Below are positions 1 through 36,479 of a DNA stretch of 64,000 bases, one piece after another (the first letter of the stretch is position 1; each line of letters begins with the position of its first letter). The DNA comes from an uncultured delta proteobacterium. GTDB taxonomy: Bacteria > Desulfobacterota > Binatia > UTPRO1. The notes below the pieces were generated by a model. That model was not told where the DNA came from and made no database searches. It was given only the letters and a program-made list of their open reading frames with translations. The position numbers and the translations under genes are program-made. The DNA is taken from the NCBI GenBank assembly GCA_963761995.1, contig CAVXIU010000014.1, positions 13,622-77,621 on the forward strand, in the 5' to 3' direction.

Positions 1-321
1 ACCACTGGCGCTGTCGGCCGCAGTGGGGTGGGTGCGTCGTCCACGGTGCGATGCGGTTGCATTGCGGTGACCTCCCGACCCTCGTGAGGGTGTCGCGCGA
101 GAGGAAGAGGGAACGAGACCCGACGCGTGAACGAATCGGCTCGGCCCCGCGGGTCTCGATCATGGCCTCGAGCTCCGCTCCTCGGCGCGGTCGCGCTTCG
201 GCGGCTCTCGGCTCCGAGGCTGAAGTCCTGCCCGCAGGGTCAGCCAACACCCACACTACTCCCTTCCGGGCCGATAACAAGGAAGCGCCTGCGGCCGCCT
301 GGATAAGAATGCAACAGCGGC
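1..321. repeat. Copy 1 of a ~320-bp direct duplication (other copy 36094-36416), truncated by the window edge
   Basis: Direct reading: ACCACTGGCGCTGTCGGCC...GGATAAGAA(T)GCAACAGCGGC matches 36094-36416 with about a dozen substitutions and 1-bp indels. Confidence 0.95.
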
Positions 322-323
322 TG

Positions 324-353
324 CGGCTAGCGCTCTCGCGCAAAGCAGCACTC
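324..353 (+). repeat. 30-bp palindromic cassette-boundary site #1
   Basis: TCGCGCAAAGCAGCACTC at 336-353, intergenic. Confidence 0.9.
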
Positions 354-1537: not shown

Positions 1538-1583
1538 TTGGTGGGGGTGTTCGCGGCGTCGCGCCCCGTTAGGTTTTTCGGCC

Positions 1584-2375
1584 GTGGACGTCGTTCAGGT
1601 GAGCGGGCTCAGGATCGTGTACGAGCGCGTGGGCGCGGGGCCGCCGCTCGTGCTGGTGCACGGCGCCGGTGACGATGGCCGGGTATGGCAGCCGCAGCTC
1701 GCGGCGCTGGCGGATGAGTTCACGGTGGTCGCTTGGGATGAGCCAGGCGCCGGGCGCTCGGACGATCTGCCTGAGGGCTTCGTCCTGGCGGATTACGCGG
1801 ACTGCCTAGCAGCGGTGATCGACGCGCTCGCGCTTGGCCCGGCGCACGTCGCGGGTCTGTCCTGGGGCGGGACCGTGGTTCTTGAGCTCTACCGGCGCTA
1901 TCCCGAGCAGGTGAGGACGCTGATCCTTGCGGACACCTACGCCGGTTGGAAGGGGTCGCTGCCGGCTGAAGAAGTGTGCGTCCGCGTCGAGGGTCTGCGC
2001 GCGATCTCGGCAGCCGGCGAGCGCTTTGACCCGCCGGGACTGTTCGCCGGCGAGCCTCCGGCTGAGTTCGCTTCGCTGCTTGTGGAGATGGCCGGGACGA
2101 GCCGGCCCGAGAGCTTGGCAGTGCAGGTGGCCGTGATGGCCGAGACGGACCAGCGGGCGCTGCTGCCTGCGATTGCCGTGCCGACCTTGCTGATCTGGGG
2201 CGAAGCCGACACCCGCTCGCCCCTCGGCGTCGCACGCCAATTCGCCGACGCGATCCCCGGCGCCGAGCTCGTCGTCCTCGCGGGAGCCGGGCACCTCAGC
2301 AACCTCGAGCGGCCGCGAGCATTCGCCGGTGCACTCCGGAGCTTCTGTCGCGATCACTCACCGCGTGAAGGCTGA
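1584..2375 (+). CDS. Alpha/beta fold hydrolase
   Basis: GPPLVLVHG, GLSWGG nucleophile elbow, C-terminal GAGHLSNLE. Confidence 0.92.
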   Translation: MDVVQVSGLRIVYERVGAGPPLVLVHGAGDDGRVWQPQLAALADEFTVVAWDEPGAGRSDDLPEGFVLADYADCLAAVIDALALGPAHVAGLSWGGTVVLELYRRYPEQVRTLILADTYAGWKGSLPAEEVCVRVEGLRAISAAGERFDPPGLFAGEPPAEFASLLVEMAGTSRPESLAVQVAVMAETDQRALLPAIAVPTLLIWGEADTRSPLGVARQFADAIPGAELVVLAGAGHLSNLERPRAFAGALRSFCRDHSPREG

Positions 2376-35447: not shown

Positions 35448-35507
35448 GAGCGGGCGTCTCAGACGACACTCGGGAGACGCCCGCTCTGGACGACAAGCAG
35501 GCGTGTC
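35448..35507. repeat. Second-family palindrome: perfect 13-bp inverted repeat GAGCGGGCGTCTC / GAGACGCCCGCTC plus GGACGACAAGCAGGCGT
   Basis: Read directly; related units at 2452-2540, 3548-3567, ~26930-27020 and 42489-42526. Confidence 0.7.
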
Positions 35508-35521
35508 GCGCGGTGCGCCCT

Positions 35522-35551
35522 CGCTCCTGCAATTCGCGCAAAGCAGCACTC
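35522..35551 (+). repeat. Palindromic site #18
   Basis: TCGCGCAAAGCAGCACTC at 35534-35551. Confidence 0.9.
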
Positions 35552-35604
35552 ACCAGCGCGGCCCCCGGATCTACGTTCGCGTCTGCTGCGAGAGCGTGCG
35601 CGTA

Positions 35605-35862
35605 CTACACGCGGTAGAGGAACGTGTAGGCCGCGGACGGACCGCTCTGGGCCCACTCCGCGAGGCAGTAGCGGCAGGTGCTGCTGTCGTCGGAAGGCAC
35701 ATCGACCGTGCTCGGCGGGCGACCCTCGACGACCTCGGCGTCGATGCGAATGCCGTGCAGGGGGCCGTCGACCAACACGGCCGTGATGGTCGGCCCGCGC
35801 ACTTGGTCGGAGCCGCGCGGCCCGAACGTCAAGTGCTTGCGGAGCATCTGCGCACTCGTCAT
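35605..35862 (-). CDS. Small hypothetical protein
   Basis: 85-aa ORF (AVLVDGPLHG...PPSTVDV...CRYCLAEW) with natural composition. Confidence 0.65.
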   Translation of the reverse strand: MTSAQMLRKHLTFGPRGSDQVRGPTITAVLVDGPLHGIRIDAEVVEGRPPSTVDVPSDDSSTCRYCLAEWAQSGPSAAYTFLYRV

Positions 35863-35876
35863 CTCGTCGTGCGCTC

Positions 35877-36155
35877 CTATGCGGTCTCGCCGGCGTCAGC
35901 GATGTGCGACCGCGCCGCGGCGACTTTGCCCCGGTCGGCGTTCAGCCCCTTGGCGAGGTCGCCGGTCGTGCAAAGCGGGTGCTCGTTCAGGTATTTGCTG
36001 ACGCGCTCCTCTATGTCGTCCTTATGCAGTCGCGCGGTAGCTCGACGACTGTGGGCGCGACGCGCGGTCGCTCGACGCGCGGAACGTCGCGGTACCACTG
36101 GCGCTGTCGGCCGCAGTGGGGTGGGTGCGTCGTCCACGGTGCGATGCGGTTGCAT
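35877..36155 (-). CDS. Small protein with a C-terminal winged-HTH-like segment
   Basis: IEERVSKYLNEHPLCTTGDLAKGLNADRGKV; GGAGG RBS; a paralogous 5' end starts at position 58 on the minus strand. Confidence 0.55.
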   Translation of the reverse strand: MQPHRTVDDAPTPLRPTAPVVPRRSARRATARRAHSRRATARLHKDDIEERVSKYLNEHPLCTTGDLAKGLNADRGKVAAARSHIADAGETA

Positions 36156-36416
36156 TGCGGTGACCTCCCGACCCTCGTGGAGGGTGTCGCGCGAGAGGAA
36201 GAGGGAACGAGACCCAGACGCGTGAATCGACTCGGCTCGGCCCCGCGGGTCTCGATCATGGCCTCGAGCTCCGCTCCTCGGCGCGGTCGCGCTTCGGTGG
36301 CTTTCGGCTCCGAGGCTGAAGTCCTGCCCGCAGGGTCAGCCACCACCCACAGTACTCCCTTCCGGGCCGATAACAAGCAAGCGCCTGCGGCCGCCTGGAT
36401 AAGAAGCAACAGCGGC
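36094..36416. repeat. Copy 2 of the ~320-bp duplication
   Basis: Matches 1-321. Confidence 0.95.
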
Positions 36417-36449
36417 CGAGATGGTCGTAGTCGAAGCGCTGCGCGCGGC

Positions 36450-36479
36450 GAGTGCTCCTATCGCGTGGAGGGGGCACTC
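36450..36479 (+). repeat. Palindromic site #19 (last in the array)
   Basis: GAGTGCTCCT-ATCGCGTGGA-GGGGGCACTC; near-perfect arms. Confidence 0.8.

Follow-up and report, generated by a model that had tools for sequence, protein, structure and literature searches.

Why does an almost identical stretch of DNA occur twice, some 36 kb apart, in an array of short palindromic sites, and what does this duplication say about the array? The window analysed here is a stretch of 64,000 nucleotides, C14:13622-77621 of an 18-contig assembly (G000). The sequence to the left of the window is readable on the same contig, and positions there are given as negative window positions. We consider it likely that the repeat represents two copies of one mobile gene cassette, and that the array is integron-like, built on double-stranded core sites and not on attC hairpins.

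Extent and boundaries of the repeated unit

The initial annotation reported that positions 1-321 recur at 36094-36416 with about a dozen differences. The repeat is real, and in our alignment the differences number 10, namely six substitutions and four one-base indels. A continuation of the homology for about 550 bp to the left, up to a site equivalent to site #18, was also predicted, and this is what the contig contains. A BLAST search of the whole contig gives a single 885-nt alignment (96.5% identity, E=0) between C14 13061-13942 (window -560 to 321) and C14 49155-50037 (window 35534-36416), and local alignment agrees. The homology thus continues for 560 bp and ends inside such a site; it neither extends past a site boundary nor ends far from a site. 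In both copies it begins at TCGCGCAA, within a copy of the palindromic site, so that the left end falls in the spacer. Upstream of TCGCGCAA the two copies are unrelated except for features common to all sites.

Each site spans 30 bp, in which two arms of 11 bp, the first variable and the second conserved (AAGCAGCACTC), enclose an 8-bp spacer (CTCGCGCA). A weight matrix derived from 32-33 sites gives the consensus ...GCTGCTTCTCGCGCAAAGCAGCACTC, with low information in the left arm and high information in the right arm. On the plus strand, the conserved arm opens a cassette and the cassette's own variable arm closes it. The boundary of the unit is located inside the site (spacer plus conserved arm) and not beside it, and the variable arm on the promoter side is owned by each cassette. 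The coordinates of all features are collected in Table 1.

Table 1. Features of the two cassette copies and of the sites that bound them (window positions; negative positions lie to the left of the window).
Feature	Positions	Strand	Description
Cassette copy 1, promoter-proximal 321 bp	1-321	-	Remainder reaches window -560 (C14 13061); 885-nt alignment
Cassette copy 2	35534-36440	-	High identity to copy 1 up to 36416; diverged variable-arm region up to 36440
ORF-A 5' end, copy 1	1-62	-	Start codon 60-62; full ORF 98 aa, to window -234
ORF-A, copy 2	35877-36155	-	92 aa, 6 codons short by TCG>TAG; invariant Arg-rich motif, then C-terminal winged helix
ORF-B	35605-35862	-	85 aa, GC3 0.92, predicted all-beta (low confidence)
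Leader, copy 1	60-278	-	-10 TAGTGT 253-258; SD GGGAGG 71-76; anti-SD tract 94-111; three private 1-nt deletions
Leader, copy 2	36156-36374	-	-10 TACTGT 36349-36354; anti-SD tract 36188-36205; SD 36164-36169
Site #1	324-353	+	Own variable arm 324-334 (CGGCTAGCGCT); spacer 335-342 (CTCGCGCA); conserved arm 343-353 (AAGCAGCACTC), property of the next cassette
Site #18	35522-35551	+	Variable arm 35522-35532, owned by left neighbour; spacer 35533-35540; conserved arm 35541-35551; copy homology from 35534
Irregular right junction, copy 2	36430-36449	+	Diverged cassette arm GTCGAAGCGCT (36430-36440), then GCGCGCGGC replacing spacer and conserved arm
Palindrome #19	36450-36479	+	GAGTGCTCCTA TCGCGTGG AGGGGGCACTC (11+8+11); last site of the array

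Sites of this kind are much more frequent than chance would give. The core motif has 13 matches in the window, all on the plus strand, against 0.12 expected from shuffled sequence. Genome-wide, strong matches to the matrix are confined to C14 (1-49 kb, plus strand), C9 (18-79 kb, minus strand), and the end of C2. Co-oriented arrays are present also in three other genomes, G020 (12 matches), G021 (33 matches in four or five clusters), and G022, and a reversed control pattern gave almost no matches in scans of the same three. The sites occur in co-oriented clusters only, and arrays of 15-20 sites are found on large contigs.

Several further features of the sites were seen. The 74 nt ending in site #18 (window 35478-35551) are 93% identical to a site region on C9, with different flanking cassettes (C9:73155-73227, C9:18263-18327). 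At many sites an additional AAGCAG-like repeat precedes the spacer by about 35-50 nt, and accessory arms may thus extend the functional site to about 75 nt. There is also a second type of palindrome with the same arms and a GCATGG centre, GCTGCTGCTTT GCATGG AAAGCAGCAG, which is nearly perfect (G000 C3:44606-44641, C3:54405-54440, C9:34854-34889).

The right ends of the two copies are not alike. Copy 1 runs straight into site #1, as had been claimed. In three-way alignments of copy 1, copy 2, and a third copy from G020 (described below), the homology starts in the spacer at the left end, and at the right end G020 and copy 1 remain alike across the cassette's own arm GCGGCTAGCGCT as far as the spacer. 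A 12-nt deletion just inside this arm in copy 1 is the reason why identity between copies 1 and 2 seems to end at 321. Copy 2 does lie between sites #18 (spacer 35533-35540) and #19, as the annotation had it. At its right end, high identity stops 33 nt short of #19, and the diverged arm, which reads AGCGCTTCGAC on the minus strand, ends 9 nt before it, leaving an irregular junction. The private changes of copy 1 are the 12-nt deletion and three 1-nt deletions in the leader, and those of copy 2 are a premature stop codon and the irregular junction. Both copies may be drifting, or some of the indels may be sequencing errors. Copy 1 is now interior to the array (C14 13.1-13.9 kb), and copy 2 is the last cassette, adjoining the terminal site #19.

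A site of the #19 type, with 19 of 21 bases identical, is located in the same orientation at the corresponding end of an array in G021 (G021:C4:407498-407518, in L108), where it is preceded by extra GGAGCAC/GTGCTCC repeats. The correspondence of sequence and position suggests that #19 is a special terminal site, possibly attI-like. Searches beside #19 and beside its G021 counterpart found no recombinase gene. About 100 bp to the right of #19, tRNA-Pro-type junction repeats begin.

Two small genes behind a conserved leader

What the cassette carries is a self-contained operon: a promoter of its own, a conserved 5' leader, ORF-A, and ORF-B, all on the minus strand. The annotation placed a gene start at position 58 on this strand; the strand is right, and the position shifts slightly to the start codon of ORF-A given in Table 1. 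In copy 1 and in relatives, ORF-A and ORF-B overlap by ATGA, and ORF-A contains a winged helix, a two-gene architecture as in toxin-antitoxin cassettes. The premature stop of ORF-A in copy 2 abolishes the overlap. Neither protein matches a family, including toxin, antitoxin, and defence families, in Pfam, PHROGs, NCBIfam, or PADLOC.

ORF-A contains an invariant Arg-rich stretch, RSARRATARRAxxRRATAR. Residues 21-42 as a whole (VVPxRSARRATARRAxxRRATAR) are invariant across 12 homologues and precede the winged helix. By sequence the stretch resembles an arginine-rich RNA-binding motif. The AlphaFold model of ORF-B has a pLDDT of 65.6, and a search of the PDB with this fold gave no match. ORF-B homologues are widespread, with 1,560 clusters in soil metagenomes and 65 loci in Thermoleophilia MAGs. 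Between copies 1 and 2, ORF-B has four non-synonymous and no synonymous changes. Two diverged ORF-B paralogues (70% and 51% identity) are found in G000 at C14:103486-103677 (+) and C2:16565-16777 (+), without canonical flanking sites. One of these adjoins an att repeat derived from tRNA-Pro and has a weak, partial element resembling the leader behind it, at C14:103741-103884.

The leader is the most conserved part of the operon. The DNA identity of its 219 nt is 84-99%, versus 73-94% for ORF-A and 82-93% for ORF-B. A coding explanation of this conservation is ruled out because close homologues differ by single-base indels. In an alignment of 28 sequences, the only invariant bases at the 5' end are those of TANNNT (T27, A28, T32), a match to the actinobacterial -10 pattern. 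At the 3' end, the Shine-Dalgarno sequence GGGAGG can pair with an upstream CCUCUCG tract, and one pair of this helix changes from C-G to U-A in four sequences. Covariation in the leader is weak overall, with an RNAalifold covariation term of -0.53. In a four-helix model picked by hand from the same alignment, three pairs show changes on both sides. Neither the leader nor the sites have an Rfam match at the gathering threshold, and matches at E up to 10 are at chance level only. The leader probably controls translation, and we regard it as a candidate new cis-regulatory RNA, nothing firmer.

The fetched loci contain 43 instances of the leader (among them L025:4661-4878, L026:4578-4789, and L038:4914-5135), some of them before other genes. 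Together with the first codons MQxQRT, the leader is also found in front of a gene for a 110-aa coiled-coil protein, and in two loci it leads straight into ORF-B. Since different genes behind the leader share their first codons, the conserved element reaches into the translation start. The start MQ(T/P)(Q/H)RT is common to ORF-A, the 110-aa coiled-coil protein, and the directly fused ORF-B (L025:4876-5208, L038:5136-5468, L048:3920-4225, L055:4010-4273).

Recurrence of the unit across genomes and a proposed exchange between sites

If the unit is a cassette, it should be found elsewhere with the same ends and other neighbours. A third copy, 89-90% identical to both G000 copies, is located at G020:C8:688801-689709 (L037). 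Two members of a co-oriented series of 15 sites flank it there, and nothing beside either G000 copy matches its neighbours. Three contigs from soil metagenomes (L105, L106, L110) have a common 5' junction, which in ORF orientation consists of a GAGTGCTGCTT-like arm (the conserved one), then the spacer TGCGCGAG, then A(A)GCGCTAGCCGCA, with unrelated flanks beyond. Contig L107 shares the other end of the unit, its 3' junction, beyond which the arm is that of a different cassette. An exact 21-mer scan for the junction in JGI metagenomes added one further contig only. Altogether the unit is present in at least five or six contexts, and the homology always ends within the spacer plus conserved arm. 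The cassettes that neighbour the unit in G020 have their G000 counterparts dispersed over C9 (at ~38 kb, in a stretch that also lies between two sites, and at ~11 kb), C1, and C3; therefore the order of cassettes is shuffled between genomes. The proposal that a site-bounded unit behaves as a mobile cassette and lends support to the array model gains from the same unit occurring with the same sites and different neighbours in G020, L105, L106, L107, and L110. Insertion on two occasions, as the proposal has it, cannot be told apart from movement or copying within the array or from acquisition on two occasions.

Other loci related to the array show a variety of arrangements. The cassette at window 1576-2356, which encodes an alpha/beta hydrolase of 263 aa, has two paralogues of 78% identity at C9:27837-28617 and C9:20886-21666, at least one of them between sites. 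At G022:C4:63736-65132 (L077:3067-4446), the operon is between two nearly symmetric sites and in the opposite orientation relative to site polarity, which counts against the cassette model. Loci of the L025 type lack canonical sites near the operon and show no more than half-site-like relics behind the stop codon. In five array-less loci (L025, L026, L029, L030, L038), a #19-like GAGTG...CACTC palindrome is located about 60 nt upstream of the promoter, and a half-site-like GG(A/G)(G/C)TGTCGCTC about 15 nt past the ORF-B stop. These palindrome and half-site elements could represent either remnants of sites or an operator. In L110 the 5' junction is canonical and the 3' end half-site-like.

The geometry of the site matches that of a tyrosine-recombinase core site in its inverted arms, its spacer in the 6-8-bp class, and exchange within the site at 19-nt resolution. 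Breakpoints can be placed only within 19 nt (spacer plus right arm) because all sites share those 19 nt. Their placement fits tyrosine-recombinase cleavage at the spacer edges without proving such cleavage, and it stays compatible with RecA-type exchange at the 19-nt repeat. Taken as a pattern of sequence, constant junctions with an own variable arm for each unit appear to be the signature of excision and insertion at a core site of this class. In the mechanism that we propose, a tyrosine recombinase dimer would bind both arms, pair two sites, and swap strands at the spacer. Recombination of the two sites that flank a cassette would yield a circle with one rebuilt site composed of the cassette's own variable arm, the spacer, and the conserved arm. 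The predicted circle junction in ORF orientation would read ...GATCCGGGGGCCGCGCTGGT GAGTGCTGCTT TGCGCGAG AGCGCTAGCCGCA..., and recombination of the circle with any array site would insert the cassette. The 885-bp cassette could have been copied or moved by such recombination. The boundaries, the variety of contexts, and the shuffled order are observed; the circle, the enzyme, and the direction of the event are inferred from them. Simple excision and insertion leave the right junction of copy 2 unaccounted for, unless a rearrangement followed or the terminal site is a special one.

The most likely enzyme would be a short Xer-like protein of ~230 aa consisting of the catalytic domain only, a candidate assigned by association. 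In the frame at C3:23005-23703 (~230 aa) we recognise by eye, with no alignment, what we take to be the Arg, Lys, His-x-x-Arg, His, and Tyr of the tyrosine-recombinase catalytic signature. The frame matches the catalytic halves of Xer models only, all below model cut-offs. The G020 array itself contains an intact homologue (72% identity, 227 aa) flanked by two sites, with a frameshifted copy of the recombinase two cassettes further on. In G000, no canonical site was found near the recombinase gene on C3, and no recombinase gene was found on C14 next to the array.

This last result also bears on the reading that the sites are short dispersed repeats of a regulatory or REP-like kind, at which the unit was duplicated by RecA-type or replication-slippage exchange between identities of 19-30 bp, with no dedicated recombinase involved. 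The missing neighbour on C14 is in line with such exchange, and so is the mapping of breakpoints to the 19 nt common to all sites and no finer. However, unequal exchange between direct repeats would produce a tandem duplication or deletion of everything between them, not one 885-bp unit 36 kb away, and the unit recurs with the same junctions in at least five contexts across samples. The strict 11+8+11 geometry, the strict co-orientation, the confinement to arrays, and a recombinase gene that is itself a unit inside the G020 array argue in the same direction, and we regard exchange without a dedicated enzyme as very unlikely. An assembly artefact, in which the contig would be a mosaic of strain variants with the cassette at different positions and no single molecule would carry both copies, is highly improbable. 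The source is a MAG, repeat arrays are hard to assemble, and the small contigs differ in tetranucleotide profile from the 7-Mb contig, all of which would favour a mosaic. Yet the 3.5% difference between the copies, with changes private to each, marks them as two separate loci and not one locus read twice. Even a true mosaic, with one cassette at two positions in two strains, would amount to cassette mobility.

It is also conceivable that the unit is a functional fixture of arrays, ORF-A being a site-binding regulator or directionality factor beside an attI-like terminal site, so that the doubling reflects function. Copy 2 adjoins the terminal #19, and the same type of site ends the G021 array; a #19-like GAGTG...CACTC palindrome lies just upstream of the operon promoter in many genomes; ORF-A has a predicted winged helix; and the unit is present in all four array-bearing genomes examined. 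Against a fixed role, the site upstream in copy 1, G020, L105, and L106 is an ordinary one and not a #19-like palindrome, and most operon-bearing loci have no canonical sites at all. Site binding by ORF-A is a conjecture, and the reading is compatible with cassette mobility and does not exclude it. We judge a fixture of this kind unlikely and retain the mobile cassette as the preferred explanation. A more ambitious version of the cassette model can be put forward as a speculation, doubtful in its entirety. According to this version, soil Thermoleophilia would carry a second, independently evolved gene-capture platform, in which a minimal tyrosine recombinase with a catalytic domain only would serve arrays of double-strand 11+8+11 core sites, each closed by an attI-like terminal site of the #19 type. 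The duplication would then reflect excision and re-insertion at the terminal site, much as cassettes are reshuffled in integrons, and the cassette would encode the platform's site-binding factor, ORF-A, under a new structured 5' leader.

The array probably does not belong to the organism of the 7-Mb contig C6, by which the kinship of the assembly is set. Tetranucleotide agreement of the 17 small contigs with C14 is 0.983-0.999 (most at least 0.99), versus 0.971-0.992 with the 7-Mb contig C6, whose chunks agree among themselves at 0.996-0.999. Close matches are all in MAGs labelled Solirubrobacteraceae. On compositional grounds the G000 bin is probably a mixture, with C14 foreign to the organism of C6. 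Relatives in the GTDB family and order of G000 yielded no sites and no ORF-B; this search is discounted as probably directed at the wrong clade, because both the tetranucleotide profiles and the Solirubrobacteraceae matches suggest that C14 lies outside the organism of C6.

Relation to known gene-capture and recombination systems

Integrons are the textbook way in which bacteria stockpile and reshuffle single genes, and to our knowledge they are essentially unknown in Actinomycetota. The duplication described here shows that units of the array move singly, between identical boundaries, within and between genomes, by way of a much simpler site. It makes the array model testable, since the predicted circle junction and the empty site are definable and can be searched for in reads. 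The 30-bp site and the ~230-aa recombinase make a small system to reconstitute, and the cassette brings to light two uncharacterised protein families together with a non-coding leader of high conservation. Compared across genomes, the sequences support a cassette system of what appears to be a new variant type. A full-text literature search found no description of such arrays in these bacteria.

Integrons are defined by the integrase IntI and by attC sites, which are bulged hairpins of 57-141 nt with RYYYAAC/GTTRRRY boxes; clusters of attC without an integrase are called CALINs. The array resembles sedentary chromosomal integrons and CALINs in that a long series of co-oriented sites splits mostly single- or few-gene units of unrelated function, in that these units are individually mobile and shuffled between genomes, and in that the array closes with a site of another type. 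Site-bounded cassettes do occur in different contexts and orders, as in integrons. A terminal site that may be comparable to attI is conserved in G000 and G021 as the #19 type, with no adjoining recombinase gene. Duplicated cassettes are also known from integrons, notably small two-gene cassettes with their own promoter, such as the toxin-antitoxin cassettes of Vibrio superintegrons.

In contrast to integrons, the sites here are 30-bp palindromes of a double-strand type with an 8-bp spacer, genes are present on both strands, the cassette brings its own promoter, and the host is a Thermoleophilia-type actinobacterium. No IntI was found in the assembly: TIGR02249 reaches 77 bits at best, where the cut-off is 265, with no match on C14, and the short recombinase scores 64.6 bits. 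The site consensus, with its 11+8+11 geometry, is devoid of R''/L''-L'/R' boxes, of the GTTRRRY core, and of GTT/AAC boxes. A classical integron is ruled out in that there is neither IntI nor an attC box. The system thus works like an integron and lacks both of the features by which integrons are defined.

In the pdif modules of Acinetobacter plasmids, 28-bp sites (11+6+11) flank a module in inverted orientation and are acted on by the host XerC/XerD. The likeness lies in gene modules that are bounded by short XerC/XerD-like core sites, occur in varied contexts, and are presumably handled by an Xer-type tyrosine recombinase. The sites described here differ in that the spacer is 8 bp (11+8+11) and all sites are co-oriented, that is, in direct orientation, in long arrays on large contigs. 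The associated candidate is a dedicated short recombinase carried inside an array (G020).

Further parallels are the dif/Xer, loxP/Cre, and FRT/Flp systems, which have two inverted arms of ~11 bp around an asymmetric 6-8-bp spacer that sets polarity, and in which direct repeats yield an excised circle with one site. Those systems resolve dimers or use one or two sites, whereas here one arm varies and moves along with the cassette, and the gene-capture array is a stack of dozens of sites.
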